Origin: a virus | Lineage: Duplodnaviria > Caudoviricetes | Length of the DNA stretch: 31,494 bases | Direction: 5' to 3' (one strand) | IMG/VR virus record: IMGVR_UViG_3300042321_000182 | Span: 1 to 31,494 of that record | Shown: positions 349 through 31,494 of the stretch, piece after piece | Layout of the letters: every line of letters starts with the position of its first letter | Numbering within the stretch: the first letter of the stretch is position 1 | Program-made: the position numbers and the translations under genes | The notes under the pieces: model-generated | Told to the model about the DNA's origin: nothing | Database searches by the model: none | Seen by the model: the letters and a program-made list of their open reading frames with translations, nothing else

Positions 349-878
349 AACCTAACGAAGCAAGCAAGTACAATCCCCTGATTAAAGAAACCGCAAAGCC
401 ATCAAGACAGATGCGTAAGCGTAAGTTTAAACGCAGCACCCTGACCACCCGTGGAGTTAAGACGGTGGCAGCAACAGCGTTTGTGCTGGGCTTACTCATT
501 GGCTATCAAGCAGCACCAAGTACAGCCATCTCATCAGCCACCCCACCGCAGCCAGCGGTTGGGTTGGTTGCTTATCACACTAACGACTTCCAATTACATG
601 CAATCAATCTGCTAATGCAACGCAATCAAGTAGAACAATGGTCTTGTTTGTGGGCGTTATGGACTGCCGAAAGTAATTGGCGAAATAAAGCAGAGAACAA
701 ATCTAGTGGCGCATACGGTATCGCACAGTTTATGCCAGCCACATGGAAAAATGTTGGATACGAAAAGACATCTGACGGTTTCATCCAAGTCCGAGCAGGA
801 CTTGCTTACATTGACCACCGCTACGCAGGTTCCCCGTGCAAAGCATACGCACACTTCCTTGCCAAGCGGTGGTATTGA
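345..878 (+). CDS. Lytic transglycosylase (SLT/lysozyme-like) with N-terminal basic + hydrophobic anchor
   Basis: C-terminal QWSCLWALWTAESNW...A.N.SSGAYGIAQ...Q...GLAYI..RY.GSPC.A...WY is typical of actinobacterial SLT domains (catalytic E in AES); ATG at 345 overlaps the upstream TGA (ATGA). Confidence 0.85.
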   Translation: MKPNEASKYNPLIKETAKPSRQMRKRKFKRSTLTTRGVKTVAATAFVLGLLIGYQAAPSTAISSATPPQPAVGLVAYHTNDFQLHAINLLMQRNQVEQWSCLWALWTAESNWRNKAENKSSGAYGIAQFMPATWKNVGYEKTSDGFIQVRAGLAYIDHRYAGSPCKAYAHFLAKRWY

Positions 879-1225
879 TGTCGTTTAAACCACAACAGCA
901 TAGAGTCATAGGAGTCAGGCAAATTGGGGACATCACATACCATTACCTTTCGTACAACTCAACAGAGTTTGCGAAGGGTAATTGTGTGGGAATTGATACG
1001 GAATTATTTTTCCCTGAAAATGCTGAACTTACAGCAGAACAACATAACCTGTTTAAACGCATCTGTGGTGATTGTCCGGTGCAAGCCATGTGCTTGGAGT
1101 GGGCGTTATGCCATGAGCGAGAAGGGATTTGGGCTGGTACAAAACCACACGACAGGCGTTTAATTCGTGAGAAGGCACGCATAGGCTTGTCTGACCCAGC
1201 CCTTGCAAGCAAGTTTATTGTCTGA
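878..1225 (+). CDS. whiB: WhiB-family Fe-S transcriptional regulator
   Basis: C-x26-CxxC-x5-C pattern (GNC..IDTELFFP...ICGDCPVQAMCLEWAL) plus a GIWAG turn motif and RR tail; ATG at 878 overlaps the upstream TGA. Confidence 0.9.
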   Translation: MSFKPQQHRVIGVRQIGDITYHYLSYNSTEFAKGNCVGIDTELFFPENAELTAEQHNLFKRICGDCPVQAMCLEWALCHEREGIWAGTKPHDRRLIREKARIGLSDPALASKFIV

Positions 1226-1237
1226 TACGCTACATCT

Positions 1238-1282
1238 GAACAACACCCAATGGTTCCAGTCCCAGCGGGTGTTGTTCCTTTT
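1238..1282. terminator. Hairpin between convergent whiB and dNMP kinase genes
   Basis: Perfect 11-bp inverted repeat GAACAACACCC (1238-1248) / GGGTGTTGTTC (1267-1277) followed by CTTTT. Confidence 0.65.
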
Positions 1283-1820
1283 ATAGCCCTAGTTCTTTAG
1301 CAAGCATAAAGACTTCATCACTTAAATCATCAAGAGTTCCATCATTATAGATTACATGTTTAAACAAATGATTATCCATTGCATGCTCTGAGATGTGATG
1401 ATTAACTGGTGCGTGGTTATGACGATTGATACGCCATACATCACCACCTTTATTCTGAATAGCCTTGGCTTCATTAGGAAAACGCACATCAGAAAATACT
1501 ACTCGCTGGTATTCGGCTGCTCGTTTAAACGCTTGGTCAATCCAAAATGTTTCACCAAATAATTCACGACCAACATCAGTTCCAAATACTTGCAGCAATC
1601 TACGGACTTCTGCATTGCCCTTGGCTACATCCCAACCATACTCATCAACTAAATCTGCAACACGATTACCACTTTCAAGAAAAGGGTTCAATGTATAGAC
1701 AGCATCACGCATAGGTAGCGCAAATGAAATGCGCTTGAACCCATAGTTTAAACACAACAGTTCTGCAACTGTATCTTTACCTGATTGGGCGTAGCCCGAT
1801 AGTCCGATTATCATTGCCAT
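1281..1820 (-). CDS. Deoxynucleoside monophosphate kinase
   Basis: IIGLSGYAQSGKDT P-loop, SFA.P, R.LLQ.FGT..GR, FWI, SDVRFPNE, HISE motifs of the T4 gp1-like dNMP kinase family. Confidence 0.9.
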   Translation of the reverse strand: MAMIIGLSGYAQSGKDTVAELLCLNYGFKRISFALPMRDAVYTLNPFLESGNRVADLVDEYGWDVAKGNAEVRRLLQVFGTDVGRELFGETFWIDQAFKRAAEYQRVVFSDVRFPNEAKAIQNKGGDVWRINRHNHAPVNHHISEHAMDNHLFKHVIYNDGTLDDLSDEVFMLAKELGL

Positions 1821-2008
1821 CTCACTTTCGGATAGAGAGTTATGTGAATAAAGAATACAAGAAAATCTAAATGTAAACAGCGAGCAAGCACCCTTGCATC
1901 ATTGGTTCCGTCTATAAATTCTACAACTGGGTAGAAATCAAAGCCCACTCCAAAAGCATGTATGCTGTTTAAACGCACATTGATAGTCAGTCTGCCAAAG
2001 TCTTTCAC
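1811..2008 (-). CDS. Hypothetical protein (65 aa)
   Basis: Fills the gap with overlaps to both neighbours (GTGA-type coupling); no recognisable motif. Confidence 0.55.
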   Translation of the reverse strand: MKDFGRLTINVRLNSIHAFGVGFDFYPVVEFIDGTNDARVLARCLHLDFLVFFIHITLYPKVRWQ

Positions 2009-2691
2009 TCTTGCCTCTGTGTTTCTGCTCTTGCCTGAGCGTTTGACCTGACTATTCTCCTACGGTTTGACCAAATAGGTGGCTCTCCACCCAGTCTATC
2101 TTGAAGTTTCTTGATAGCCCTATGCACCCGCTTACGCAATGCTTCCTCGGTCATCTCATACACAACGGCTAACACATCAAAGTCCATGCCACCATTAGCG
2201 TATCGTTGCCGGAGAAGGTTCTTATCTTGCTCGTTTAAACCACGCAATCCATTGGCTACATCCGATAGCAAAGCAATCCTACTGTTACCTTCGTTAACCT
2301 TAGATGTCTTACTGACGAACTCACTACTCAAATCAGGCGTATCCAACCAGCCTTCATAGTCCCATACATCTCGTAATAATTGATGCAAGATTTCAGGTGT
2401 GTAATAAAAGTAATCACTTGTAGATACACGGGACTTGTAAGCACGCTCTTTCGTAACAAACTTCTGCGCTTCATTAGCATAGGTGCGGCGCAGTTTAAAC
2501 GCTAAAGATTGTTGTTCGTTCCACTCATCAATCTTGTGCCAATGGGATAAAGCCCAAACAATTAGATGTTGAAAGATGTCCTCAACAGGCACAGCATTAC
2601 GGTTTATCTTGGCTGAGTACCTTGATGCGGTGCGTGCCAACTTGTAAACCGTATCCCACAATGGGGACTTCTCAACATCCTGCAATTCCAC
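2005..2691 (-). CDS. RNA polymerase sigma-70-like factor (region 4 HTH)
   Basis: C-terminal L..L.EQDKNLLRQRY..GMDFDVLAVVYEMTEEALRKRVHRAIKKL matches sigma region 4; N-terminal EDIFQ is region 2-like; GTG start with AAGGAG RBS. Confidence 0.7.
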   Translation of the reverse strand: MELQDVEKSPLWDTVYKLARTASRYSAKINRNAVPVEDIFQHLIVWALSHWHKIDEWNEQQSLAFKLRRTYANEAQKFVTKERAYKSRVSTSDYFYYTPEILHQLLRDVWDYEGWLDTPDLSSEFVSKTSKVNEGNSRIALLSDVANGLRGLNEQDKNLLRQRYANGGMDFDVLAVVYEMTEEALRKRVHRAIKKLQDRLGGEPPIWSNRRRIVRSNAQARAETQRQE

Positions 2692-2693
2692 AC

Positions 2694-3161
2694 TTACTCC
2701 TTTATTATTAAATCAATCCAGTACTGTTTAAACATCATAGCACTAACTCTGACCACAAGGTCACGCTCGTTTGTGTCGTGGCGAACATTAAACTCAGGCA
2801 TCAATCCACCTAGTTCTTTAACTGGTATCAATAAAGTTCCGTCAGTAAATCTAAAACAAATGCGGTGAAAGGTATCAGGATTGTCTAGGTATGGCGGGCT
2901 AATCAGCATCTGTTGCAACTTATTAAATGGAAAGATTGCTGACTTACTGCTATCTATGGACAGCCACTTAATTTCTATGTCGCCTAAATAATTTTCTCTA
3001 CCGTTATCATGCAACCAAGTTAAATGGAAGTCAGTAAAGTAAAACCTAGGCGTAGGATAAAAGCGCCAGTTTGGATAGAGCCTAGATAAAGCGTGAACGG
3101 CAGCAGTTTCCCGTCTGCCGTCACCGCCCACCTGACGGATAGGTTCCAAAAAATCAGGCAT
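2694..3161 (-). CDS. Hypothetical protein, possible PD-(D/E)XK nuclease fold
   Basis: E...A / TDF / IEIK arrangement resembles restriction-endonuclease-like motifs; overlaps upstream gene. Confidence 0.5.
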   Translation of the reverse strand: MPDFLEPIRQVGGDGRRETAAVHALSRLYPNWRFYPTPRFYFTDFHLTWLHDNGRENYLGDIEIKWLSIDSSKSAIFPFNKLQQMLISPPYLDNPDTFHRICFRFTDGTLLIPVKELGGLMPEFNVRHDTNERDLVVRVSAMMFKQYWIDLIIKE

Positions 3162-3909
3162 AGTGTTTGTTATTAACTATGAATTGACCCTTGTGTAGAT
3201 ACACAGGAGTAGGAAATACTTGACGGTCTTTAACTGTTAATAAACCAAAGCCTTGTTGCCAGTTAGCAGAGCCACCCACATAATGGGCAGCGTTTAAACG
3301 CATCATGTTTCCTACTTCAAAACCATACAACTGTTCAGTAACTTTTCCATTAAGTGATGTAGTAAACGCTTGTAAACCCAAACGGTGCGTGTGTCCACAG
3401 ACGACACTTTTGCCATAGCGTTTTGCTAAATTCATTGCAGTTCCGCCCGCAATACGACTCATAGCACCTTCATCCCCATGGGCTAGTATCCAATTTGGCG
3501 CTAGTTCTACCGGCTTACGGTGCAATGTAATGTTTAAACGGTCAAGGTCAAGCATTTCCTCTATGGTTAAACTACTAAGACTACGAAGTGCTGGTGCAAA
3601 TTGCGACACATACTTCTCAACTCTTATGTCGTGGTTGCCAGTCTTAAAATGAATAGGTCTGCGACCCATAATGTGGCGTAGGTCTGCTAATAAATCTGTT
3701 GCTTCATTAACCGAACCTTGTAAAGTTTTTGCATACTCACCAGCATTACCCCTTGACCAACGGCTAGGTTCAGGTTGGTCAATCCAATCTCCCACTATCC
3801 ACAGTTCATTAGGTTTGTAATCCCAAATGAAATCGTGGAGTAAAGCGACTGCTTTTCTATCTTGAAACGGTACTTGATAGTCACTCAGTACCACGATTTT
3901 TTTAATCAT
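3154..3909 (-). CDS. Calcineurin-like metallophosphoesterase
   Basis: All five motifs present: SDYQ, GDWID, GNHD, HGD, GHTH. Confidence 0.9.
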   Translation of the reverse strand: MIKKIVVLSDYQVPFQDRKAVALLHDFIWDYKPNELWIVGDWIDQPEPSRWSRGNAGEYAKTLQGSVNEATDLLADLRHIMGRRPIHFKTGNHDIRVEKYVSQFAPALRSLSSLTIEEMLDLDRLNITLHRKPVELAPNWILAHGDEGAMSRIAGGTAMNLAKRYGKSVVCGHTHRLGLQAFTTSLNGKVTEQLYGFEVGNMMRLNAAHYVGGSANWQQGFGLLTVKDRQVFPTPVYLHKGQFIVNNKHYA

Positions 3910-3913
3910 GTGT

Positions 3914-4528
3914 TTAAACTCCTGCTCGTTTTCGTAGCCCGTCAGCGCCCTCAGTTAAGAACACATCATTTACATCACACCCCTCAGGCATGAACACGGG
4001 AAATACATTGTCTAGTTCACGGGATAAACTCTTTGCCATCTCACGACCAGCATTATCACCATCACAAAACAATAAAATCTTTGACCAATCTGCTAACACT
4101 CTGCCATAAAATGGTTTCCAATTATTAGCCCCCGGAAGTCCGACAGCACTAAAGCCTGCTTGTGTAGCAATCATTGTGTCTATCTCACCTTCACATACAA
4201 CTAATAAATCACTCTCTTGGAATAGAGCAGCAATGTTGTAGATGTGTGTACTAGCCCCCGGTCTTGATAAATACTTCGGTCCATCACCGTTTAAACTACG
4301 GAAGCGGATGTCCACAACTCCTGTTGGAGTTAGATAAGGTATTGATAATTTATTAGAGTATGGTTCGTGACCAATCTCAGGTTCACTTACGAAGCCTAGG
4401 CGGAACATACGCGCCGTCTGTTCGGTGATACCTCTCTGACTCAGGTAAGGCATCACTTGTTCTAGGTTTTCCGCGTACTTCTGACTCGCTGACTCCAGTA
4501 ATTCTCTCTGCGATTTTGATAGCCTCAC
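3914..4528 (-). CDS. DNA primase, catalytic/TOPRIM part
   Basis: YL..RGI, IPY, PKYLS, VCEGEID, GLPGA, DGDNAG, DVND motifs; likely GTG start at 4528, 9 nt after AAGGAG. Confidence 0.85.
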   Translation of the reverse strand: MRLSKSQRELLESASQKYAENLEQVMPYLSQRGITEQTARMFRLGFVSEPEIGHEPYSNKLSIPYLTPTGVVDIRFRSLNGDGPKYLSRPGASTHIYNIAALFQESDLLVVCEGEIDTMIATQAGFSAVGLPGANNWKPFYGRVLADWSKILLFCDGDNAGREMAKSLSRELDNVFPVFMPEGCDVNDVFLTEGADGLRKRAGV

Positions 4529-4760
4529 GAAATACAACTCCTTCTTTTTTCATTATGATTGAGTACACATCCCCAGCCATGTCGCAGCCAAAGCATCTGA
4601 ACCCACCGTTGTCTATGTTTAAACGCGCTGACTTAACTCTATCACCATGGAAGGCGCACCGCACCGTAATCCACCCATGTCGTACAGGTATTTGAAACCC
4701 GTAATGTTCCAGTACAGGTACTATGTCGTGCTTTTTATCAGAGTTTTGCAAGGGCATCAC
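4383..4760 (-). CDS. DNA primase, CHC2 zinc-binding part
   Basis: CAFHGD..SA......FRCFGC..GDVY..I...EG..F.EA is a DnaG-type CHC2 zinc finger. Confidence 0.85.
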   Translation of the reverse strand: MMPLQNSDKKHDIVPVLEHYGFQIPVRHGWITVRCAFHGDRVKSARLNIDNGGFRCFGCDMAGDVYSIIMKKEGVVFREAIKIAERITGVSESEVRGKPRTSDALPESERYHRTDGAYVPPRLRK

Positions 4761-5097
4761 TTAGTTTCTGTACCACATAAGCATCTCCAATACCCTTATT
4801 TGCAGCCTTTATGATGACCAATGGGTTGGGTGCTAACGCCAACTTCTTGGCAATCCGATAGTTCTCTGCCTCAATGTAGGCTTCTCGTAGCCACCCACTT
4901 AGGTCAATACGCCCATCCCGCCTTGGGGCTTTGGCTTCAACAACATAGAAGTCATTTGCCGTAGGCAAGAACACATCCCCTATGTCGTTTCTACCAGCAC
5001 GGGGTAAACGCTGTGCGTTTAAACCCTGAGTCATAAACCAGTCGGCTAGTTCTATTTCAAAGGCTGCGCCTCTACGCTTGTTCGCTTGGTTGTTCAT
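4738..5097 (-). CDS. Holliday-junction resolvase-like PD-(D/E)XK endonuclease
   Basis: NKRRGAAFE...DIGDV...VVEAK motif of Hjc-like phage resolvases; start taken at MNNQ (5097). Confidence 0.75.
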   Translation of the reverse strand: MNNQANKRRGAAFEIELADWFMTQGLNAQRLPRAGRNDIGDVFLPTANDFYVVEAKAPRRDGRIDLSGWLREAYIEAENYRIAKKLALAPNPLVIIKAANKGIGDAYVVQKLSDALAKL

Positions 5098-5818
5098 TTG
5101 CTTTTGCCTTTCTTGCTTCGGCTTCATAGACAGAACCCCAATACAACTTGTAATAATTTTCATCTAAACTAAAACGCTTCATGTGTTTAACGCGAGCGCC
5201 AGTATGAGCATGAACAGGTACACCTGCTTTCTTTAAGTATCTAAAGAACACAATGTCCTCACTTACAAACTGATTGTTTAAACCTTCCTTCTCTGCAAAC
5301 AAAGAATAGTCAGGACAAACTTCTCGTAATCTAGGAACAACACTCTTATGCATTAAGGCTAATCCCATGCCAGCACAATCAACTTTAATGATTTCATTTT
5401 CAGGCAAAGGATGTATGTAGTTAATAGTAAACTCATTACCAGTTTCATTAAAGACACATGGCATAGGTTGCATCAATGCTTGTTCATTTTCTTTTGAGAT
5501 AAAGTAAACACCAGTAACAACTGGGCGTGTTAACTTATCTGCTGTATCCCATAATTTCTTTAACACATCTTGATTAAGCACAATGTCTGAGTCAACCCAT
5601 AACAACCAATCGGTCTTTACTTGGTCAGCCCATAGGTCAAATAGACTTTGGCGTTGCCTGCCAATCTGATTACCTTGAACTCGGATAGCATTATGCACTT
5701 GTATGTTCTTAGGGTCTTGACCCATAATAATTGTGTAAACAAGTCCTTCGGTAAACTTACCGTCAGACATACCATTATCACACCAACCAATAGATAATGT
5801 TTCATTTTTACTGTGCAT
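5072..5818 (-). CDS. Glycosyltransferase (GT-A/GT2-like)
   Basis: DWLLWVDSD (DxD), VVTGVYF, AGMGLALMH, SEDIVF, H.K motifs; start taken at MHSK (5818). Confidence 0.75.
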   Translation of the reverse strand: MHSKNETLSIGWCDNGMSDGKFTEGLVYTIIMGQDPKNIQVHNAIRVQGNQIGRQRQSLFDLWADQVKTDWLLWVDSDIVLNQDVLKKLWDTADKLTRPVVTGVYFISKENEQALMQPMPCVFNETGNEFTINYIHPLPENEIIKVDCAGMGLALMHKSVVPRLREVCPDYSLFAEKEGLNNQFVSEDIVFFRYLKKAGVPVHAHTGARVKHMKRFSLDENYYKLYWGSVYEAEARKAKANEQPSEQA

Positions 5819-6239
5819 CTTTATCCTCAATCCCAATAATTATTTCATCAAAGTCAAACATCTCTGCTTTAATTTTTAAATCATCTAACATAGTCATAGC
5901 ATTTTCTGCCATGGCTTTCCAAATACAAGACATAGTATGTAATCCAACGGCTATCTCCATCTTGCAACCATCATCATGCCCATCAATAACCGCATCTCTT
6001 AGGTGTTCTGATAGTTGGTCAACATAATCTGCGTATTGAATAGACTCAAACCAAATCTTTTGTGGGTCATAAATTCTGCGAGTTGCTTCATCTAAACTAT
6101 CCGCAATCATTGGTAGTTGGGTAGAAATCTTTTCACGCATTTCATCAGAGATAGGTGCATTATCAATCATCTGCCTTAACAACTCTTGTGAAACTTTTAA
6201 CTTAGGTGCAAACTTATCGTTTAAACTTTCCTCGCTCAT
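5808..6239 (-). CDS. Hypothetical acidic protein
   Basis: 143-aa ORF coupled to neighbours; no motif recognised. Confidence 0.65.
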   Translation of the reverse strand: MSEESLNDKFAPKLKVSQELLRQMIDNAPISDEMREKISTQLPMIADSLDEATRRIYDPQKIWFESIQYADYVDQLSEHLRDAVIDGHDDGCKMEIAVGLHTMSCIWKAMAENAMTMLDDLKIKAEMFDFDEIIIGIEDKDAQ

Positions 6240-7045: not shown

Positions 7046-7047
7046 TG

Positions 7048-7497: not shown

Positions 7498-8332
7498 TTG
7501 TTTCTCCTTCTGTTAGTTCGGGGTATTTGTGTGAGTCCTTGCCGTTTACGACATAGCATGCAGCGTTTACACCGCATGTACCGCACATAAATCCGGGTGC
7601 TGGTATGTAGATGTCGTTCATTACTGCCTTCTCAAAGTTTTTAACCCATGAGCCTAGGCGTGCTTCTGTGAAATTATCTAGGTTTACCGTTTCCGTCAGT
7701 TCACCTGTGCGGGACATCCAATAAGCACCACCAACTGGGCGCACACCAAATGTTTTCTCTACCATAATTGAATAGATACCCATTTGAGTTTTGCTTGCTG
7801 GTTCTCTGCTTCCTGTTTTGATGTCCACAATAATTAGTTCCCCATCAGGATTAACAAACAAGCGGTCAAGGACTGCCTTTACTGGCACTCCACGAACATC
7901 TTGGTTCATCTCAATCTCAATGGCAGGGCGACCATCAGGTAGTTTAAACAGTTGATAACCTGAGTCATTGCGGAACTGTACCCAGCGGTCAACCATTTTA
8001 GGTCCTTCGGTTAACCACCAAGTTGCATCCTCACCATTTGGATACGCTTTAGTAGAGCGCCCACCAGCACGGAACTGCATGCCGTTGTCGCTTCTTTCAT
8101 AGTTGCGTTTCCATGCTTCGTTAAAAGCAATGGTTGAGTTAAAGTTCTCCGTACCCGTGGCATCATAAACTTCTGTTGCTTCGTGTACAGACGAACCACC
8201 TACTAACCAGTAGGATGGGTTCTCAGGAACTTTTTGTATTCGGGATAGATAGAATTGCCACCCGCAGTTTAGCCAAGTTGAAATACCACTATGGCTAACA
8301 TAGGATTTCCCTGTCTTTATTTCTAGGGTCAA
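7487..8332 (-). CDS. RecB/Cas4-like PD-(D/E)XK exonuclease with Fe-S cysteines
   Basis: SHS.I.TW..C, GSSVH, LDRL, IVDIKTG, Q...Y, CGTC.....C; TTG start after an AGAAAGGA RBS. Confidence 0.85.
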   Translation of the reverse strand: MTLEIKTGKSYVSHSGISTWLNCGWQFYLSRIQKVPENPSYWLVGGSSVHEATEVYDATGTENFNSTIAFNEAWKRNYERSDNGMQFRAGGRSTKAYPNGEDATWWLTEGPKMVDRWVQFRNDSGYQLFKLPDGRPAIEIEMNQDVRGVPVKAVLDRLFVNPDGELIIVDIKTGSREPASKTQMGIYSIMVEKTFGVRPVGGAYWMSRTGELTETVNLDNFTEARLGSWVKNFEKAVMNDIYIPAPGFMCGTCGVNAACYVVNGKDSHKYPELTEGETSDE

Positions 8333-8475
8333 TTATCCAGTCCTTTCTATGTGTAGTTGATTTCTCCGCTAGGATACAGGTGCAATCTCTCTCCTATTCG
8401 GCGACACGCCGTGTCGGTACAAGCAAAATTACACAAATGTAATTAGACTGCTGTTCGTGCAGCGTAAGGATAAGT
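8333..8475. promoter_or_regulatory. Divergent promoter region with palindromic operators
   Basis: Non-coding gap between divergent genes; CGACACG-C-CGTGTCG (8402-8416); AATTACA-caaa-TGTAATT (8427-8444); -10-like TAGACT (+, 8444-8449) and TATCCT (-, 8376-8371). Confidence 0.65.
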
Positions 8476-8878: not shown

Positions 8879-8884
8879 TAAAAC

Positions 8885-8948: not shown

Positions 8949-8965
8949 ATGTTTAAACGATTAGA

Positions 8966-10055: not shown

Positions 10056-10218
10056 CAACTCGTCTTTCAACTCTGTTTAAACGGTCAGACACACTTGTTC
10101 CCCCGTTTGGTTTAAGTTCACTTAGATAATGTTTGACCAAAAATCTAATAGCAGCAGTAAAGCCAACTAGAAGGGTCATTACAGATACGGCTAGTGCAGC
10201 CCAGTTTGCAGGGGTCAT
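10015..10218 (-). CDS. Single-TM membrane protein with coiled coil
   Basis: N-terminal TM, then ELKPNGGTS..DRLNRVE motif typical of actinophage lysis-region membrane proteins. Confidence 0.7.
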   Translation of the reverse strand: MTPANWAALAVSVMTLLVGFTAAIRFLVKHYLSELKPNGGTSVSDRLNRVERRVDEIYSLLVNRTNS

Positions 10219-10230
10219 TTGTTCTATTCC

Positions 10231-12220: not shown

Positions 12221-12328
12221 TTACTGGGGTTCGCCTTCGCAACAATTTGCTTTGGTCTTACAAAAAGGGCATAGCCATCTAGTGGCAACAGGAGAAAATT
12301 CCTTGCCACAGTTTAAACAATCAATCAA
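12221..12328 (-). CDS. 35-aa Zn-ribbon microprotein (not in ORF track)
   Basis: TTG overlaps the upstream TGA; MIDCLNCGKEFSPVATRWLCPFCKTKANCCEGEPQ has two CxxC; exactly fills the gap. Confidence 0.55.
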   Translation of the reverse strand: MIDCLNCGKEFSPVATRWLCPFCKTKANCCEGEPQ

Positions 12329-18060: not shown

Positions 18061-18323
18061 AGGTTAATAGACCTCAATGCATCTACCGCAGATTTTCCGG
18101 TTGTACTAGCAAGTTCATTACAAATTGCGTTTAAACCTTTATAGTCTTTTGGTTGTCGGGATGAACTAGCCTTGTAATTAAGGGCAGCAATAAGACCTAA
18201 GCCTGTTGTGCCTGCATAGGAATTGGCAGCACCTTGCGGTGCTTTAAAAGATGCCACGCTGGTAATACCTGCAAGGCGATTAAGTTCACCTGTTAATGTA
18301 CTGCCTGCTGTTCCTAGTGCCAT
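18057..18323 (-). CDS. Hypothetical virion-region protein (88 aa)
   Basis: Internal repeat ELNRLAG / CNELAS; coupled to neighbours. Confidence 0.65.
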   Translation of the reverse strand: MALGTAGSTLTGELNRLAGITSVASFKAPQGAANSYAGTTGLGLIAALNYKASSSRQPKDYKGLNAICNELASTTGKSAVDALRSINL

Positions 18324-18908: not shown

Positions 18909-19060
18909 TATTCGTTCTCCATTTCCATGTTGTTTTTGTGATACATACCGGGTTGAACTGTGACCTTGTTTAAACTTGCTTCTGTTGGTTTACTGCTTAC
19001 TTCCCTACCGCCTACGCCGTAAGGTTCAACAGCACCATAGCATCCACACTCAGCACACAT
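18908..19060 (-). CDS. 50-aa protein with N-terminal CxxCGC (not in ORF track)
   Basis: MCAECGCYGAVEPYG...; AAGGAG RBS, TAATG coupling at both ends. Confidence 0.65.
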   Translation of the reverse strand: MCAECGCYGAVEPYGVGGREVSSKPTEASLNKVTVQPGMYHKNNMEMENE

Positions 19061-19623
19061 TACTTACTCCTTTGTGTTATGACTTTTACATCTCCGCCAA
19101 CACTTATGTTGTAATCAGCGGAAACCTTAATTGCTCTACGAGCCACAGCCTCAACGCTCTTAATAGAGTTCTTGCTCATGCCTGCTGCTGCTAGCGCACC
19201 AAGGGCTAAATCGCCCCCACTACCTACCGCATACAAACCACGGTCATCTCTTGACCATAAATAATCTTGGTCAACTTCGTAGATAACTCCGTTTAAACAA
19301 ATAAGTGCATCAAATCCGGCATCTTTATCTTTAGTTGTATCAGGGTTGTACCCATGTTCAATCATTGTTTCCCGTAGGGAAGGCAGAACTTTTGTCTGCA
19401 TAAACACATCTGTTGGTATTGTCTTAATTACTTTCGGTGGAGTCCAAAGGTAAGTTGCAATGTTTCCTGCAATAGCATCACCTGAAAACCCAAATACATA
19501 GTCGCCTTTTTTGATAACTTTATCCACACCTTTTGCATAGTATGGTTTGTCCTCATAGGTAGTCATGGAGTCGGCTGCGATTAACGCCCAACCCTTTCCC
19601 TGAATACCTACAATGGCAGTCAT
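19060..19623 (-). CDS. HslV/proteasome-beta-like Ntn protease
   Basis: Thr at position 2 (MTAIVG), AADS, K, GFSGD, A(V)GSG..ALGAL motifs. Confidence 0.8.
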   Translation of the reverse strand: MTAIVGIQGKGWALIAADSMTTYEDKPYYAKGVDKVIKKGDYVFGFSGDAIAGNIATYLWTPPKVIKTIPTDVFMQTKVLPSLRETMIEHGYNPDTTKDKDAGFDALICLNGVIYEVDQDYLWSRDDRGLYAVGSGGDLALGALAAAGMSKNSIKSVEAVARRAIKVSADYNISVGGDVKVITQRSK

Positions 19624-19898: not shown

Positions 19899-19900
19899 GT

Positions 19901-20158
19901 TTAAACCGTTGTTATGTATTCCTCATAGCCTGCTGCTATGAGCCGTGTTCTTGTTTGTTCATCAATGTCGTAAATGTGACCACCTAAATAAACTTCATCT
20001 GCTTCCAAGGTTTGAGTTTGACTTGGATAACGAAATGATGAATACACACCATTAACTCGTAGGACAGTAATCCCACGGTTTATGCCCATACGCTCAAAAA
20101 GGGTATGTCCACCAGCAGGGGTTTCTTTAATGCTGGGTGGTGTGAATTGGTATGCCAT
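19901..20158 (-). CDS. Hypothetical virion-region protein (85 aa)
   Basis: TAAGGAG RBS; YLGGH.Y....L.AAGY motif; first gene after the capsid. Confidence 0.7.
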   Translation of the reverse strand: MAYQFTPPSIKETPAGGHTLFERMGINRGITVLRVNGVYSSFRYPSQTQTLEADEVYLGGHIYDIDEQTRTRLIAAGYEEYITTV

Positions 20159-20177: not shown

Positions 20178-20207
20178 GGGTAGCGGGCGTTTAAACACCC
20201 GCCACCC
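20178..20207 (-). terminator. GC-rich hairpin downstream of the major capsid gene
   Basis: On - strand GGGUGGCGGGUGU/ACGCCCGCUACCC, a 13-bp stem with two G-U pairs and a UUAA loop; weak U-tract. Confidence 0.7.
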
Positions 20208-21869: not shown

Positions 21870-21994
21870 TAGCCATCTCCCTTTCGTTAGTTGTTGTATT
21901 CGCAATCCACAATGTATGTAGGGGAACATACCTTGGCTATTGCTACCAGACTTCTTACACTCATCCGGGCTGGTCGGTCAGATAAGGAACCTAG

Positions 21995-23506: not shown

Positions 23507-23509
23507 TTA

Positions 23510-24997
23510 TTAACCTACAATTCCGAAGTCACGAAGCAGGCTGAGTGCCTGATTGGTGTAAGTTTCTTTAGCGTTCTTTGTGTATTGCCATAGTGGGTCA
23601 TTTTTAACAGACTTAGTAAAATCTGCAAATGTAGATTTAGCAGGCTTACCGTCAACGCCAGTTTTCATTGCATACTTCATAAGGTCGTTCCACTTGATTG
23701 AACTTTCATCCATTTCAAGAAGGGAAGCCATCTGATTGCGATAATTACGAGTCATGTCGTAAAGACTTCTACCTTGATTTAAACCCTCAGCAAATGGGGA
23801 ATAAAGTTCACTAGATTGGCGTTTCATTTCCTCATACCAAAATGACTCATCACGACCATCCATTGTGTCTAACAATGATTGGTTAATTGATTTCTTGTAA
23901 TTGTCGTCAAGGCTAACGCCATACTTCCAAGCCAAATCATTGATACGGCGAATTGAACTTCCAATACTTCCGCCACCTGAAAAAATAATGTCTGACTTAG
24001 TAGCCAAGTAATTATCTAACTGGGCATCAGTCCAATCGTTTTTAACAGTTTCTAGGATGATGCCGTTTACACGCTTATTGTATTCCTCAGGGGTCATCAT
24101 CTTGCCAGTAGTCGGGTCAATTTGGTTTAAACGGATACCCAAGGCTTCAAGCCGTTGTCTTACTGCATCTGTTTTATTGTTAATCTTTTGACCAAAAGTT
24201 GCAGCGTTGCGTGGGTCATTAGACTCTAAGAAAAAGTTACGGAAAGTTGGATACTCGGTTTGCCACCAAGTTGTGCCTTTAAGGGCTTCCATAAAGGTTG
24301 CTTCATCCCAATTCTGCTTCTTAGCAGTATCAAGAAGTTTCTCAATGTCGTCACGCATTTTGGCATCATCAAGTGTTTTAAAGGTTTGTCGCATGTAAGA
24401 AACCCATACGGTCTTATCAATAACAACTTTATTCTTATCACCTGTGCCACCAGTACCGCCTGTGCCACCTGTTCCGCCAGTTACTCCACCAGTAGAACCT
24501 TTTGTGCCACTTTGTGATGCTGAACCTTTGGCTGTGTATGGCTCAGGGTCAATGGAGTTAGGAATACCATCTCCATCTGCATCCTCAAAACTTCCAGTAC
24601 CCTTACCACCGCTACCAACAACTGATGTAGGTGTAACCGTTCCACCAAGTTCTTTAATCTTGGCATCAATGTCTTTAATCTTTTTATCAGTTTCTTTAGC
24701 ACCAAGAGTAAGCGCTCTCTTGCGCTCGCCCTGTAAGCGAGTAACTTCTGCTTGATTTTTCTTTTGCAATGCAGCAGCAGATGCTGTTTTAACTTGTGCA
24801 TTAAGTTCGTCAAATGCTTTCTTTGCTGCTAAGTATTCTTTTTCTGCTTTTGTGTATGCAGGAGTGTTTAACTTAGCGCTTGCAAACGCTTTTCTTTTTT
24901 GTTCAAGAAAATAACCTGTTCTAGCAAGTTTTTCCTCAGGGGTCATTTCATCAGGTTGGACATTACCTCTACCGCCACCGCGTGGACCGACTGCCAT
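23510..24997 (-). CDS. Putative internal virion protein
   Basis: Helical, GGT-repeat linker, DADGDGIPNSIDP Ca-binding-like motif, C-terminal DP.WQYTKNA. Confidence 0.55.
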   Translation of the reverse strand: MAVGPRGGGRGNVQPDEMTPEEKLARTGYFLEQKRKAFASAKLNTPAYTKAEKEYLAAKKAFDELNAQVKTASAAALQKKNQAEVTRLQGERKRALTLGAKETDKKIKDIDAKIKELGGTVTPTSVVGSGGKGTGSFEDADGDGIPNSIDPEPYTAKGSASQSGTKGSTGGVTGGTGGTGGTGGTGDKNKVVIDKTVWVSYMRQTFKTLDDAKMRDDIEKLLDTAKKQNWDEATFMEALKGTTWWQTEYPTFRNFFLESNDPRNAATFGQKINNKTDAVRQRLEALGIRLNQIDPTTGKMMTPEEYNKRVNGIILETVKNDWTDAQLDNYLATKSDIIFSGGGSIGSSIRRINDLAWKYGVSLDDNYKKSINQSLLDTMDGRDESFWYEEMKRQSSELYSPFAEGLNQGRSLYDMTRNYRNQMASLLEMDESSIKWNDLMKYAMKTGVDGKPAKSTFADFTKSVKNDPLWQYTKNAKETYTNQALSLLRDFGIVG

Positions 24998-25629: not shown

Positions 25630-28600
25630 TTAAATCACCACCGGGTCGTTAGGAAAGTATCTATTGTAAAAATCGCTAAACTCAGGTGACTCAGCACCAA
25701 GTTGGGTAACAAATCTATCCCAAAGGTCTGCTAAGTCATCATTACTATTTGCTTCCAATGAGCGTGAACCACCCATTTGGTCGCGTTGCAATAATGCTTG
25801 ACCAATCTTTTTACGAGCATCTAGGTACAAAGCAACAGCCTTTACAACTGGGCGATTACCATTTTGTGCCATCCATGCTTTGTCTTGAAGTGCTTGTCCA
25901 AGGACATCAGCACGCTTCATGTACTTACCACGGTCAGGGGACATGTAGGCTGCATACCAATCAACATTGTTTTCAGCCATGTAATCTAACCATGCTCGCT
26001 TAGCATTATTGTATTGTTCTAATAATGGGTCACGATTACTGCCAATACCGTTTTGGATTTTAAATGCATCAATTACATCTTGTATCTTACGGTATTCAGT
26101 CCAGCCACGCTTTAAGTTTGCATCTTTAATAAGTTCTGCTGGGTTACGGTTTTGACGATAGGTGTTAGCCGAACCGGGGTATGAACCTGTGCGATACTGC
26201 CATTGATAGGCAGCCTGCGAGAAATCATACTTACCGTCAAAATCATTAGCAAGCCATCCCATAAGTTCAGGCTCACCCTTTGCCTCTGCTTCTGCCATTA
26301 AACCGCTGAACTTACGAAGGTTACGAACGGTGTCTAGGTTGGCTTCAAGGCTGCCGGGGTTCTTAGATAAAGATACTGTGGCTTCAAAGAAGTCAGGGTA
26401 CATCTCAAAGAACTTGGCTTCTGCTTCGCCGGGTTCTGTGTATTGATTTTGGAACTGGCGGAAAACTTGTTGGTAGAAATCTACCTCAGGTGAGATAGCA
26501 AACGGTGCAGAAATTGCAGTCAAAGAACGAAGTAAATAAAACTTGTTAACTTTGCTGGTAATTTCATCTACCGTTGGTGTTTCTTGGCGCTTACCTGTGT
26601 TGTAATTGTATGTTTCATAACGCAACATTTGGTTAAAGGTACGAACATACATTTCGTCTTTAGACCACATGGTCTTTAGACGGCGCAATGTGCTAGGTAG
26701 AAAAATCTCAGATGCGCTGTTAGGCATACCTGCTGGGAATAACGGTTTAAACGCTTCCTCAAATTCAGGGCGTTGGCGCAAGATTAAATAAGTTGGGAAT
26801 ACGGCATAAGGACCAAAACCCGGATTACCTGCTTGACCTTGGGTAATAACATCAAGGCTTGATAATGGGATGTTAACTCGTTTAAACGCGTTCTCAGCCA
26901 CATCTTGCCACTCACCCGGCAATGCTTTGATAAAAGCATCAGGTACTTGAACCACAAGGTTAGCCATACCACCCTCACCAAGTTGCTTGGTATCGGTAAT
27001 ACGGTTGCCTTCTTGGTCAACTACTAATTGTCCATTAACAATTTGTGCAATAGTTCTAGCAGCAGTTGTAACTACCTGTGGGTTCTCGGCAACAATGCCA
27101 CCCCAACGCATTAAAGTATTTTCATAGGCTGCATAGAACGGGAACAACAAGCGCATTACTTGGCTTGATGATGCACCAGTTCTACGAACAATAGTAAACA
27201 AAGTACGCTCTACTTCACGGCGGGCTTCCTCACGGGCAGCACGCTCAGCACGGCGTATTTCATCACCTGTAAGTTTATCTACACCTCTAGCCTGTGCAAT
27301 TCCATCAATGTTTCGTTTAACATTTTCTTGATAAACAATGTTTACTAATGGGTGACGAGCAAAGGTATCCTCAGGAAGTGAGCCTAGGAAGCGCATAACA
27401 CGGCGGTTAACCATGTCCACAATACGCTCTTGGTCACGGTATTCCTTACTTGTAGTTACAAGCAGACCGTTAATTTCAGGTAAATTCTCAGGTTGAGTGC
27501 CAAAACGATTAAGTAAAAATACTTCTACATCTCCACCTGTAAGTGGCTTACCATCCTCTTTAGCAGCAGTAAGCATAAGTGCTGTATCCTCATCAGGAAC
27601 ATACAACTTAACAGCATTGCGTGTATCACTAATACGAGTTAATAAATAATCATTTTCCTCGCCAGCCTTTAACTTACCAAACCCAAGTCCCTTGCCGGGA
27701 ATTGTGTATGTGTTATTGGCATAGATACGCCCACCACGGGTTCTAGTTAAAAATCCTAAAATCTCATCATTAGTTGCACCGTCAAGAATACGACTTACTA
27801 TTGGGTCCATAATCCCAGTTTCAGGGTCACGGAAGTGTAGATTTAATACACCAGCCCATGCTTCAAAGTAGCGTGGGTCGCCGGGCTTAACTGGTCGCAT
27901 TGCTCTTGAACCGGGACCTGCAAGGAACGCCATTTGCTGGCTTCCAATAATGCTGCCCCATGTTTGTTCAGATGATGTACGAGCAAGCATCCAAGATGCA
28001 TTGTTAAATACTTCATCAACTTCGTATGAGTGACCATTTGCTTCGTGAGTAAAAGTTCCAAATCCAACTTTTGACTTAACAGACATTTGTTCTGATTGAC
28101 TGATACGAGCGCCTAAGCGACCCATCATGTCGTCAAGTTGAGCATTGACCTCTGCGTATGAACGACCAATGTTAGCAGCAGCATCCTCAACACCATTGTT
28201 AATCATGGCAATTAAGTTCTCATCATCATAGTAAGGAGAAACTGCTGGGCGAGTACGGCGTGATTTTTCTTTACGGCGTACCTGTGTCCGAGCAAGACGG
28301 CGTTCTTTAGTTGTTTGCAATGGCTGAGCAATGTCTAATGCAGCATCTGCTTCTGCTTGTGCTGCTTCAATTTGAGCGCGAGTTAACTTAGTAACTTCAC
28401 GACCACGACCTGCTTCGCCTACTGCCTCAGGTAGAACAATGTGTGATAGTCCACCTGCACGGCGGTCATCACCTACAACTGCACGACCAAAATTGTTTTC
28501 ACGAAGGTACTTGTACAAAGGAGAGTTTTGGTCTTGCCAACCTTTACTCTTTACCCAAGCACGCCAAACTTTTGCATCTCCACCAAATACTTCTTTGCGT

Positions 28601-31494
28601 ACATCCAATGGGATGTCTGACCATTTATTAAGATAAAGGGCATCACCATAAACACGCATTGGAGTAACGCTTCCACCATCACGGCGGACACGGAATACTG
28701 CACGCTCTAATTCTTTAGGATTAAGGTTGCGTATTCTATCCTCATCAACCTTAACAAAACCTTTACTTGTACCCTTGCGAAGTTCAACAATGTTTCCAGC
28801 ACGGCTAGCGCCAATCATGTCTGACTTCATGCGGGCTGCTGCGGTAAGTAACTTTTCAGGGTACGGCTTACGGGCAGGGCGTGGGTCATAACCCCACTCA
28901 AACCAAGAATTGCCATCTGTAAAAATGTCGCCTGCACGAACACGCATTTCCTCAATACGATACTCAGGGTCTAGGTATCTACTTCCATGAAGGTCTGCAT
29001 ACTCACGAAGTGGTGTTACCCAATCACCTTGGTTAATAACAGCAGGTGCATCTTTAGGAACAGCACGATAAACGGTAACCATACGATTTGGGTTACCTTT
29101 GTATTGATTGATAAATTCAACAATTTGTTTATCTAATCTACTAAAATCTTTTCCACCTACACCATAGATACGAGCAGCATCAGCAGAATAGACATCCTCA
29201 GGATAAATACGAGTTATGTTGTCTAGTGATGCACCAAACTCGCGGTCAGGTGCTGTGTGTGCGCCACGGTATCCAGCAGTAAATGATGATTGTGGATGGC
29301 GTTGTGGACCTTTACGAGTAACAACTCTTAGTGGAACTGGTCGCCCAGTATCTGAGATGTAACGCTCTAGTCCAAAACTAAATTCTTGTGTTGCATAACG
29401 GTCAGCAATTTGTGCATTAGTAGATGCAGATAATGGTCTTGCTGGGTCAAATTCAAAAGTATTTGTTGCTGAGCCATGATACAAAGTAACGGCTTCTGCT
29501 TCTGCCAAGGCAGAACGAAGTCTTGTAAGTTCTCTAGGTAGAACAATGGCTGCTGCTTCCTCAACACCAACTAAATTACCTTTAGCCTTTTCAGCAGCAA
29601 TGTAGTTAGCAATTAAGCGCTCGCCACCACGCTCAATGTCTGCCATGCGGGTACGGATTTCTCCTGCAAGACCTTTACGAGAAAGGTCAAGACCACGAAG
29701 CATGTCTTGAAGTTTTGCAACTTCATCACGCAAAACATTGATGTCGTCTTTACGACCAGCCAAAACTTCAACATTATCAATAAGACGGCTAACTCCCGCT
29801 TTACGATTTTGTAAAAATCTTTGTACAGCCGAAGGACCACCAACTGCTACTGCTGCTGGTAGGGCAAAAGCCTTAGCCATCATAGATAGTTGTGCTTCTG
29901 TAAGGTTACGAACTGTGTAACCTAGGCGCATAAGAACGGATGTTTTGAAAATGTCGTTAACATTATCAAGTGTGTTCATAAACTTTTGTCCACGAACAGC
30001 AATTTCCGTTGGGTCAATGCCTGAAAGAATACTTGGAAGTACACGCTCGTAAGAGTCAATGCCATCTTTTAGTCGGCGTAAATCCATTGCAATAACAATG
30101 TTTGCAGACTCACGCTCTAACTGTGGAAACTTAGCAATTACTGGACCGTTCTCTGTAAAGATAGACAAGAAGCCACGGTCTTTATGTTCTTTAAGTGTCT
30201 TAGCACGGCGGTAATCAAAAATTGCGTACAGTTTTTCAATTTGTTGTTGGCTCATGTTTGGGGCAATAATTCCCAAAGCATCTTTTTCAGCCAACTTAAT
30301 AATGTTTAAACGCTCGCCTTCGGTGGCTGCTGCAAGATACTGGTCAGCGTATGCCCCAGCCTTTGGTGCAAATGTTCCACCTGAAAGTTCAACAGCCTCA
30401 CGCAAAAATGCGTTCATCTCTACATAGGAGTCGCCATCATTTACTCTGAATACACCACTTGGGCGAAACTTTGTAAAGAACTCTGACTTACCCTTCATGT
30501 AATTAACAACCATAACGGCTGGATGAAGGCTAGTTTTTTGTATCATGGTTACTTCGGGGTCAGCAAAAGTCTTTGCTAACTTTTCTGCACGATTGCGTGC
30601 ATAACCTGATAGTGGACCACGGGCAAAAGTTCCACCACGGAACTCATTACCGCCAGTTGAAACTCTTTCTAATGCAATACGGAAACGGTCATCCTCTTTA
30701 ACAAGGTTGCCTAGATAAGTTGAAACTGCATTATTGTACTCAGGGCTAACAATTAAATCACCATCAAGTTTTCCATTAAGTGCTTCACGGAAAGGCTTTG
30801 GTGTATCTGTTAAATTATCAAGAACAAGCGCTGCTTCGTCATCAACTCTTGCGATTGCTGCCATTGCTTGCTTATCTGAACCAAGTACGGCACGGAAAGT
30901 ATCAACAACTTCTTGGTCGGTAGTTGCACGACCAAATAAATAAGCCATAGCATCAGGGTGTGTAACACGCTTTTTAGACCAGTATGGATACTGAGTCTTT
31001 GCATCAGAGCGTGCAAGGAATTGAACATCCTCAACTGCACGACCCTCACCTTTAAGAGCGCGACCTAATAGGTCATCCACTCCATCAGAAGTCATTGCTA
31101 ACTTACCAAAAACTTTACGAGTTGCAGAACCCGGAATTGATGCAATACCAGTACGACCAGCACCCATCAACCCTGCTGCCATTGGCGCACGGGCTGCAAT
31201 AGAAACACCTTTACCAGCAAACCCTGCAAAAAATAGCGGGTCAATAGTCATAGATGAAGTAAAATCAAGAGAACCACTAGCAAACTTACCAATAAATTGG
31301 TCGTTAAATGCTGCTTCTCTATCCTCAGGATTAAATAAATCAAATCCTGCTGCTAAATACTTTACATTACGGTCAAGAAAATCATGGAACCAACCTGAAT
31401 TTTCTGCTGCGTTCTTGCCTTGACCAAACAAAGACAGGGCAACTTGTCCCATTGAAATGTCGTCTTTGTTGTCGGCTACGCGCTTTTGATACTG
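25630..31494 (-). CDS. Giant (>1950 aa) internal virion / polyvalent protein with ADP-ribosyltransferase-like domains (5' truncated)
   Basis: Frame is open to the window edge (14 more codons before the listed Met); LYHG...S....A.RYA and VYRAVP...GDWVT...EWGY motifs; helical remainder with FPFY and LMRLGY..RN motifs. Confidence 0.7.
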   Translation of the reverse strand, partial: QYQKRVADNKDDISMGQVALSLFGQGKNAAENSGWFHDFLDRNVKYLAAGFDLFNPEDREAAFNDQFIGKFASGSLDFTSSMTIDPLFFAGFAGKGVSIAARAPMAAGLMGAGRTGIASIPGSATRKVFGKLAMTSDGVDDLLGRALKGEGRAVEDVQFLARSDAKTQYPYWSKKRVTHPDAMAYLFGRATTDQEVVDTFRAVLGSDKQAMAAIARVDDEAALVLDNLTDTPKPFREALNGKLDGDLIVSPEYNNAVSTYLGNLVKEDDRFRIALERVSTGGNEFRGGTFARGPLSGYARNRAEKLAKTFADPEVTMIQKTSLHPAVMVVNYMKGKSEFFTKFRPSGVFRVNDGDSYVEMNAFLREAVELSGGTFAPKAGAYADQYLAAATEGERLNIIKLAEKDALGIIAPNMSQQQIEKLYAIFDYRRAKTLKEHKDRGFLSIFTENGPVIAKFPQLERESANIVIAMDLRRLKDGIDSYERVLPSILSGIDPTEIAVRGQKFMNTLDNVNDIFKTSVLMRLGYTVRNLTEAQLSMMAKAFALPAAVAVGGPSAVQRFLQNRKAGVSRLIDNVEVLAGRKDDINVLRDEVAKLQDMLRGLDLSRKGLAGEIRTRMADIERGGERLIANYIAAEKAKGNLVGVEEAAAIVLPRELTRLRSALAEAEAVTLYHGSATNTFEFDPARPLSASTNAQIADRYATQEFSFGLERYISDTGRPVPLRVVTRKGPQRHPQSSFTAGYRGAHTAPDREFGASLDNITRIYPEDVYSADAARIYGVGGKDFSRLDKQIVEFINQYKGNPNRMVTVYRAVPKDAPAVINQGDWVTPLREYADLHGSRYLDPEYRIEEMRVRAGDIFTDGNSWFEWGYDPRPARKPYPEKLLTAAARMKSDMIGASRAGNIVELRKGTSKGFVKVDEDRIRNLNPKELERAVFRVRRDGGSVTPMRVYGDALYLNKWSDIPLDVRKEVFGGDAKVWRAWVKSKGWQDQNSPLYKYLRENNFGRAVVGDDRRAGGLSHIVLPEAVGEAGRGREVTKLTRAQIEAAQAEADAALDIAQPLQTTKERRLARTQVRRKEKSRRTRPAVSPYYDDENLIAMINNGVEDAAANIGRSYAEVNAQLDDMMGRLGARISQSEQMSVKSKVGFGTFTHEANGHSYEVDEVFNNASWMLARTSSEQTWGSIIGSQQMAFLAGPGSRAMRPVKPGDPRYFEAWAGVLNLHFRDPETGIMDPIVSRILDGATNDEILGFLTRTRGGRIYANNTYTIPGKGLGFGKLKAGEENDYLLTRISDTRNAVKLYVPDEDTALMLTAAKEDGKPLTGGDVEVFLLNRFGTQPENLPEINGLLVTTSKEYRDQERIVDMVNRRVMRFLGSLPEDTFARHPLVNIVYQENVKRNIDGIAQARGVDKLTGDEIRRAERAAREEARREVERTLFTIVRRTGASSSQVMRLLFPFYAAYENTLMRWGGIVAENPQVVTTAARTIAQIVNGQLVVDQEGNRITDTKQLGEGGMANLVVQVPDAFIKALPGEWQDVAENAFKRVNIPLSSLDVITQGQAGNPGFGPYAVFPTYLILRQRPEFEEAFKPLFPAGMPNSASEIFLPSTLRRLKTMWSKDEMYVRTFNQMLRYETYNYNTGKRQETPTVDEITSKVNKFYLLRSLTAISAPFAISPEVDFYQQVFRQFQNQYTEPGEAEAKFFEMYPDFFEATVSLSKNPGSLEANLDTVRNLRKFSGLMAEAEAKGEPELMGWLANDFDGKYDFSQAAYQWQYRTGSYPGSANTYRQNRNPAELIKDANLKRGWTEYRKIQDVIDAFKIQNGIGSNRDPLLEQYNNAKRAWLDYMAENNVDWYAAYMSPDRGKYMKRADVLGQALQDKAWMAQNGNRPVVKAVALYLDARKKIGQALLQRDQMGGSRSLEANSNDDLADLWDRFVTQLGAESPEFSDFYNRYFPNDPVVI

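Follow-up and report, generated by a model that had tools for sequence, protein, structure and literature searches.

The GTTTAAAC word in the window

We analyzed a 31,494-nucleotide stretch of viral DNA (Duplodnaviria; Caudoviricetes; IMG/VR record IMGVR_UViG_3300042321_000182, positions 1 to 31,494), called the window below, together with the 8-bp palindrome GTTTAAAC that recurs along it and the candidate partner of this palindrome, a SprT-like/zinc-ribbon gene of the same phage group. By matches to PHROG and Pfam, the window encodes whiB, a sigma-like protein, a dNMP kinase, a split primase, a helicase, an exonuclease, tail and capsid proteins, and a protein of 1940 amino acids (aa). The complete relative G001 aligns to it at 85-99%, and the window makes up 31.5 kb of a genome of ~41 kb, that of a podovirus of actinophage type. 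The nearest cultured capsids are those of Streptomyces Beephvirinae (53-55%), and whiB and the capsid point to an actinobacterial host. A freshwater habitat is suggested by near-identical contigs from four RNA runs of freshwater or river origin, and we take the phage to resemble the acI phages. These metatranscriptome contigs cover scattered pieces of the window at high identity, and starts, strand and level cannot be read from them. When the tail region was searched at the nucleotide level against cultured phages, only short tail-fiber matches were returned.

The window contains 32 exact copies of GTTTAAAC, spanning positions 425 to 30311, in agreement with a first-pass annotation of the sequence that had counted at least 32. 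The excess is real but smaller than the roughly 40-fold estimated there: dinucleotide shuffles gave a mean of 1.14 copies (maximum of 5 in 100 shuffles) and an order-2 Markov model gave 1.27, an enrichment of 25-28-fold. The next-commonest 8-mer palindrome occurs four times, and the 12 one-mismatch variants of GTTTAAAC are present at 0-4 copies each, as expected by chance. The symmetric flank bias described in that annotation was matched on recount, with a pyrimidine before the word in 25/32 copies and a purine after it in 22/32.

Twenty-seven copies lie wholly within genes (17 read as xLN and 10 as xFK), two form GTT-TAA stop codons, also confirmed from the earlier annotation, and three are intergenic. 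The distribution is uneven and favors early genes, with 18 of the 32 copies in a dense zone at 425..6226 (mean gap 341 bp, shortest 165 bp). There the word is found in the SLT transglycosylase gene (425..432, KFKR), whiB (883..890, SFKP; 1051..1058, LFKR), the dNMP kinase gene (1358..1365, LFKH; 1523..1530, AFKR; 1746..1753, CLN at codon 23), a 65-aa open reading frame (ORF; 1967..1974, RLN), the sigma-like gene (2233..2240, GLN; 2493..2500, AFKL), a 155-aa ORF (2726..2733, MFKQ), the metallophosphoesterase gene (3292..3299 and 3532..3539, both RLN), the primase Toprim gene (stop codon at 3912..3919; 4289..4296, SLN), the primase zinc-finger gene (4617..4624, RLN), and the genes for a RusA-like resolvase (5017..5024, GLN), a glycosyltransferase (5276..5283, GLN) and a 143-aa ORF (6219..6226, SLN). 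The remaining copies are in the exonuclease gene (7942..7949, LFKL), between convergent genes (8951..8958), in a 67-aa ORF (10075..10082, RLN), in another intergenic position (12311..12318), in the adaptor gene (17212..17219, RLN), in ORFs of 88 aa (18129..18136, GLN) and 50 aa (18968..18975, SLN), in the HslV-like peptidase gene (19291..19298, CLN), at the stop codon of an 85-aa ORF (19899..19906), in the loop of a G+C-rich inverted repeat that follows the major capsid gene and looks terminator-like by eye (20189..20196), in a 495-aa ORF (24125..24132, RLN), and in the 1940-aa ORF (26745..26752, AFKP; 26880..26887, AFKR; 30304..30311, RLN).

Amino-acid or codon preference is insufficient to account for these copies, as the first-pass annotation had argued. 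Synonymous shuffling with the protein held fixed left 3.4 ± 1.5 in-gene copies (maximum of 9 in 1000 shuffles), compared to the 27 observed, and 27 of the 34 positions at which the protein permits the word are spelled as the word. In the dense zone (330-6239) there are 19 peptides able to encode GTTTAAAC versus 2.7 after amino-acid shuffling, and selection therefore reaches the protein level. Per 1000 aa, the six class A relatives, which carry GTTTAAAC, have 4.9-8.2 such permissive peptides, versus 1.2-2.1 in four class B relatives, which carry a second word described below. GTTTAAAC is under selection as a DNA word, and protein sequences have been bent to hold it. Because independent complete relatives share the excess (55, 56 and 37 copies; Manuel has none), the word is not an artefact of assembly or cloning junctions, a possibility raised in the earlier annotation.

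A SprT-like/zinc-ribbon gene that accompanies the word

A co-occurring gene for a candidate DNA-binding protein, which the first-pass annotation had anticipated, was found just beyond the window. A scan for three GTTTAAAC sites ~200 bp apart gave 65 viral stretches, many of which share no gene with the window and whose G+C content ranges from 29 to 52%. Family phrog_6361 was matched in 9 of the 11 motif-rich loci whose large ORFs were scanned. Its protein has a SprT-like domain followed by a C-terminal ribbon of ~50 aa, a beta-hairpin/helix zinc ribbon; Pfam PF10263 was matched in 6 of 10 homologs and more weakly in one more, and the G001 protein aligns at 20-54% identity. The left end of the window (1..1) is a truncation point that corresponds to G001 position 24645. 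In G001 the gene is at 28147-28686 on the minus strand (L223:8147-8686), 3.5-4.0 kb beyond that end, and is the first gene of the early operon. All four distinct close contigs that reach that far carry it. The dense zone of the window is the distal half of a ~10-kb zone starting at the SprT/zinc-ribbon gene. An amidoligase and class II glutamine amidotransferase pair directly follows the gene in the G001 early operon (L223:6018-8141).

In G001 and the rest of its clade, hydrophobic residues take the place of the HExxH motif of the protease domain, which is intact in most other carriers. Four genomes (G021, G024, G025 and G049) keep only the ribbon, of ~55 aa, and have 23-47 sites, from which we infer that the ribbon is the DNA-contacting part. 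Foldseek gave weak matches to SPRTN, selecase and IrrE (E 0.02-0.3; 6mdx, 3dti and selecase). Sequence searches found no solved relative and no NCBIfam family, and fold searches with the ribbon recovered only generic zinc ribbons (best Z 3.3), so that a known fold is neither shown nor excluded.

The family is present in 164 cultured-phage records. Among the carriers are Streptomyces, Arthrobacter and Microbacterium prophages as well as plasmids of alphaproteobacteria, on which the gene is near relaxase and coupling-protein genes; the hosts of carriers span Actinobacteria and alpha-, beta- and gammaproteobacteria. Annotated records place an integrase next to the gene in Mano and Honk, and a tyrosine integrase was detected in 2 of 59 large neighboring ORFs scanned, indicating that this adjacency is not general.

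Gene and word occur together. In a set of 25 records of at least 90% completeness, to which Manuel was added, the profile matched 12, of which 11 contain 9-55 sites; each of the 14 unmatched records contains 0-3. This comparison is partly circular, because motif-rich contigs were the source of profile A1 and the motif scan had supplied 7 of the 12 matched complete records. An unbiased set was made up of loci fetched with protease-domain peptides only (80/83 from genomes and 80/506 from viral contigs; 140 non-redundant). Here 91 of the 140 loci were enriched for GTTTAAAC or its pseudopalindromic variant GTTTACAC (GTTTA(A/C)AC; p<0.01), and a reversed-word control was enriched in 0/140. The pooled loci held 302 copies of GTTTAAAC (8.8 expected) and 323 of GTTTACAC (16.2 expected), and these were the only two strongly enriched among ten GT-N-TA-N-AC variants tested. 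Enrichment extends to genomes of 62-70% G+C. Eleven cultured phages of the family were examined for word counts: Honk, Emotion, DrManhattan and UNTPL have 17-39 copies of GTTTACAC, and R5C, Mica, ECO1230-10 and Mano have 4-17 of GTTTAAAC. DrManhattan, Honk and UNTPL carry 26-39 sites per genome (42-54 kb).

The word also switches with the ribbon. In the one complete exception, G023, the ribbon starts with GRNTNL and the word is TGTCTTAA(G/T), a near-palindrome with half-sites one base longer. Three further genomes missed by the first profile (G022, G027 and G030) have the same protein type together with TGTCTTAA. Among loci fetched with the GRNTNL-type protein, TGTCTTAA was present in 19/19, one of them with only two copies, and GTTTAAAC occurred 0-1 times. 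An identical Cys-Leu-Asn at codon 23 of the dNMP kinase gene is encoded through GTTTAAAC in class A, including the window, and through TGTCTTAA in 4/4 class B genomes. In a QPTR subgroup with a proline in the first ribbon strand (8 loci), the word is relaxed to RTTTAAAY. The two classes interleave on the helicase and primase trees, in which five class A rows are labelled by word only, and well-supported branches force at least four changes of class; block exchange of early modules could explain some of these. G021 and G023 have near-identical helicase and primase genes and different words, each fitting its own ribbon.

We conclude from these sequence comparisons that GTTTAAAC is very probably bound by the phage-encoded SprT-like/zinc-ribbon protein. 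Several observations weigh against this pairing. The gene is absent from the window itself. No significant enrichment was found in 49 of the 140 unbiased loci. In Eden, ChiliPepper and CN1 the ribbon that follows the SprT domain is altered and the word count is 0-1, and a de novo search for contiguous 8-mers found no comparable word in these three or in seven gene-less records. Five incomplete motif-rich records (G026, G028, G029, G034 and G050) had no profile match, and three of these end inside the dense zone. Finally, G044 combines a GRN-type ribbon with 29 copies of GTTTAAAC, and the residue code is therefore not simple.

Other candidate readers encoded in the window were rejected. whiB, the sigma-like gene and the 155-aa ORF are also present in class B phages, and there are many motif-rich phages with which the window has no gene in common. 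A segment of the 1940-aa protein (window 25630-31452; residues 721-859) that carries the PHROG label 'ParB C-terminal domain' does not track the word; among 18 genomes tested it is found only in G001 and G002, as a variable insert of what is probably an ejection protein. The 155-aa ORF (2694-3161) had no Pfam or PHROG match, is patchy among relatives, and contains a D...EIK pattern that we take to be PD-(D/E)xK-like, making it a possible phage nuclease. The only candidate nuclease does not follow the word. Two loci, L249 and L201 (G044), contain a second, longer repeated motif, with ~20 copies containing CCAGACTC, besides GTTTAAAC, and L346 and L422 contain 5 and 6 copies of GTGTACAC, a possible further specificity variant.

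Promoters, site spacing and a putative silencing role

Promoters were called by eye against the sigma-70 consensus. In L207 a site lies within the spacer of a TTGACA-17-TATAAT promoter of the SprT/ribbon gene; it likewise lies in the -35/-10 spacer of this gene in G005, L051 and Honk, and just after the -10 in G001, DrManhattan and ECO1230-10. A site is within 170 bp of the gene in 14 of 19 class A genes, and within 250 bp upstream in 34 of the 140 unbiased loci (10.8 expected). In high-G+C phages the promoter-plus-site unit is repeated before several early genes. Otherwise identical Honk promoters carry GTTTACAC in both orientations, and the orientations in UNTPL are 16:23. Coding sites are not flanked by a long conserved element, and the word was rejected as a promoter element of a sigma factor. 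In Streptomyces podovirus-like prophages (L045, L051 and L322-L325), the repeated early promoter unit is partly divergent, has the site in its spacer, and also carries a conserved downstream box.

Site density depends on distance from the gene. In 23 aquatic-type records, several of which came from the motif scan, it is 2.3-3.3/kb over the 8 kb downstream, 0.06-0.33/kb more than 2 kb upstream, and near background beyond 10 kb downstream; class B has the same shape. In G001 the zone crosses a change of gene direction. The proposal in the first-pass annotation of a selected, genome-wide cis-signal thus holds for selection; the spread here is not even along the genome and forms a gradient from the promoter of the SprT/zinc-ribbon gene. 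Sites are evenly spaced over whole genomes, with no chosen boundary, in UNTPL (P = 5e-5), DrManhattan (7e-4), Honk (0.025) and R5C (0.03). Dense zones are also evenly spaced, within boundaries chosen afterwards, and spacing over the whole window is not more even than random.

We propose that the SprT/zinc-ribbon protein, made from the first early-operon gene, would bind GTTTAAAC through its C-terminal ribbon, and would probably do so as a dimer, because the site is palindromic and GTTTACAC occurs in both orientations in otherwise identical promoters. At promoters, including the gene's own early promoter, bound protein would repress initiation, and the overlap of sites with promoters, its own among them, points to autoregulation and early shut-off. 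Sites in coding DNA would act as roadblocks that damp transcription through the ~10 kb downstream, as proposed for stoperators. In temperate carriers the protein would serve as an immunity repressor, with the metalloprotease domain acting as a regulatory or oligomerizing module; in the integrase-less, protease-dead lineage of the window, it would shut off or hold down the early phase. We assign a probability of roughly 55% to this reading, in which the protein would be a stoperator-like silencer of early genes. The system is probably a repressor-operator system of mobile elements, of an undescribed type.

Outside support for the silencer is circumstantial. Cluster AZ/EH phages are homoimmune and have no identified repressor, according to PMC8758107. 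The SprT/ribbon gene is conserved in these phages and may encode their missing immunity repressor. In a preprint, Liebe, with a frameshift in the SprT-like gene, forms clear plaques and Maureen forms turbid ones (bioRxiv 10.1101/2025.05.26.655371). The ribbon of Liebe is still in frame and the site upstream is kept.

Several points tell against silencing. Liebe and Maureen differ at three other positions as well. The complete relative G001 showed no integrase, and lysogenic immunity therefore cannot be the role in this lineage. The 27 of 32 sites that lie in coding sequence are unlike known operators. The rightward-read replication operon of the window is densest far from its own promoter, and position fits the sites better than operon control does.

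More tentatively, silencing and proteolysis may be combined in a common and as yet undescribed self-marking system of phages, prophages and plasmids, in which a sequence-specific zinc ribbon of swappable specificity tethers the SprT-like metalloprotease at evenly spaced words in the DNA of the element itself, silences transcription, and cleaves either the protein itself or host DNA-bound proteins. Such a system, which we consider possible but doubtful as a whole, would be a metalloprotease counterpart of cI/LexA and the missing AZ/EH repressor.

The main rival to the silencer is that the same protein forms a protective coat or a DNA-tethered protease, marking the element's DNA at even intervals and clearing or blocking host proteins from the first-exposed ~10 kb; its targets might be restriction or other defense complexes, silencers, or crosslinked proteins. 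Even spacing, sites in coding DNA and in terminator loops, and a zone that follows position across the change of gene direction in G001 all fit this idea, as do the weak structural resemblance to SPRTN, selecase and IrrE, the intact HExxH in most carriers (plasmids with the gene beside relaxase and coupling-protein genes among them), and the extreme restriction-site avoidance of the window phage. Yet the lineage of the window lacks HExxH, four relatives have only the ribbon, and most sites are found there; moreover, sites are placed inside the -35/-10 spacers of repeated early promoters, and the gene is an early gene and not a virion gene. We regard the coat or protease as rather unlikely.

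It is improbable that the protein instead organizes phage DNA by looping or compaction, by pacing entry, or in replication or segregation of an unintegrated carrier state, with promoter overlap reflecting mere autoregulation. Sites that recur regularly every ~250-350 bp within a zone of constant extent, and the presence of the gene on plasmids and prophages, would fit such a role. However, there is no ParA/ParB partner among the G001 early ORFs, the 'ParB C-terminal' match is confined to two of the 18 genomes, and temperate carriers show whole-genome spread and not a centromere-like cluster. parS/ParB would lead one to expect a clustered 16-bp site with ParA and ParB, whereas here the 8-mer is dispersed.

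A host protein as reader (a GntR/HutC-type regulator, a methylase, or an uptake or nucleoid factor), with the SprT gene as a fellow traveller of the early module, is very unlikely. The word fits the HutC consensus, and early modules move as blocks that could carry gene and sites jointly. A GntR/HutC regulon would be expected to have the degenerate site GT-N-TA-N-AC, whereas one-mismatch variants are at expectation in the window and only 2 of the 10 GT-N-TA-N-AC variants are strongly enriched. The GntR family PF00392 was matched in 0/5 complete relatives (control 12/14), against the HutC-type reader considered in the first-pass annotation, and the N6/N4 methylase family PF01555 was also matched in 0/5, which narrows the methylation option. 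A HIP1-type host signal would be enriched chromosome-wide, but 301 Actinomycetota genomes were at background, with a maximum of 58 copies in 1.5 Mb, ~26-fold below the density in the window (the actual host of the phage is not identified). This result would stand without G056 and G175, two genomes of the set that are marked unpublished. The sites listed for five host genomes are concentrated in prophage; in one case, 14 of 23 fall within 44 kb of a single contig. Carriers that span Actinobacteria and three proteobacterial classes, and words that differ with the ribbon in G021 and G023, also argue against a host reader. Of the phage- or host-protein landing site proposed earlier, the phage-encoded partner is retained and the host factor is not. 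In one of the host genomes, an Arthrobacter (G051), a second GTTTACAC cluster at ~1,366,000-1,385,000 of contig C4 is possibly another element of this kind.

The idea that GTTTAAAC is a passive survivor, the only palindrome uncut by host restriction enzymes and inflated by codon bias, can be dismissed: 45/64 six-base palindromes are absent and TTTAAA is among the survivors, but the remaining palindromes occur about as often as expected, genomes of 62-70% G+C are also enriched for the word, and both the synonymous shuffles (3.4 versus 27) and the altered proteins refute it.

The absence of 45 of the 64 six-base palindromes amounts to extreme restriction-site-like avoidance. The window also lacks GATC, GGCC, TCGA and AGCT; ATAT and TATA are nearly purged, as are the asymmetric GAAGA, CCAGA and TGACA, together with CCWGG, the asymmetric and CCWGG purge being seen only in the window's clade. 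Consistent with the purge of TGACA, the early promoter of G001 has no TTGACA at the place where relatives carry one. With both strands considered, CCACCACC and CCACCGCC are enriched in the window (24 and 14 copies). We take them to resemble Chi-like G-rich octamers on the other strand, and their enrichment may merely reflect glycine-rich tail proteins.

Known systems and implications

Among the analogies offered in the first-pass annotation, that to stoperators is supported and those to parS, matS and HIP1 are not, nor is a packaging signal. According to PMC9283540, Cluster A repressors (L5 gp71, TipsytheTRex) have more than 20 genomic sites, at promoters and dispersed; these stoperators are 13-bp, asymmetric, intergenic sites oriented with transcription and bound by a monomeric protein with a helix-turn-helix (HTH) and a Stoperator domain; and the bound repressor blocks initiation and elongation and gives immunity. 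The system described here is similar in having more than 20 sites per genome at promoters and dispersed (55 in G001; 26-39 in DrManhattan, Honk and UNTPL), in specificity that differs between relatives, and in similar density in temperate carriers. In contrast, the site here is an 8-bp (pseudo)palindrome with weak flanks, used in both orientations, 27 of the 32 window sites are wholly inside genes, and the partner is a zinc ribbon with a SprT-like fold. The system would thus work like stoperators while lacking the site, placement and protein-fold features of that family.

HIP1, DNA uptake sequences and Chi are chromosome-wide host signals. Like them, GTTTAAAC is a short exact word written through coding genes with changes to amino acids; unlike them, it does not extend beyond a mobile element, its zone begins at a single promoter, and its form changes with a single gene that the element encodes. 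SPRTN/Spartan, Wss1, IrrE/PprI and ArdC couple a zincin-like HExxH fold to a DNA-binding part, as here. They are structure-specific or activated by single-stranded DNA and are not known to be sequence-specific, and we know of no genome-wide cognate word for any of them. In addition, the catalytic motif is lost in the window's lineage, unlike in the SPRTN-type metalloproteases.

A preprint on AZ phages lists the SprT-like protein Lizalica gp46 as a DNA-binding candidate with a predicted SPRTN-like function (bioRxiv 10.1101/2025.05.26.655371). Its main text names no DNA site and does not contain the GTTTACAC strings, and the site, its variants, and the dead-protease and ribbon-only forms are not described in that text. 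Other motifs of Microbacterium phages are listed in PMC7302621, the main text of which mentions neither SprT nor this word. Within mostly open-access literature and main texts, we found no description of the word or of the gene-word pairing. New in this analysis are a second class of specificity, the switch of word at the same codons, forms with a dead protease or with the ribbon alone, the zone anchored at the promoter, and the connection to the missing AZ repressor.

These results give a very common 'SprT-like protease', found in phages and plasmids, a DNA site and a likely function, and they bear on the open question of which gene is the immunity repressor of the homoimmune Cluster AZ/EH phages. 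Cultured carriers that are harmless exist (DrManhattan, Honk and UNTPL). The word can be used to flag the gene and the early genome end in fragmentary viral contigs, and it provides a clear case in which selection on a DNA word rewrites protein sequences. If the pairing is true, the zinc ribbon of ~50 residues, which would read an 8-bp word and varies naturally in specificity, would be a small DNA-binding module of a new kind.

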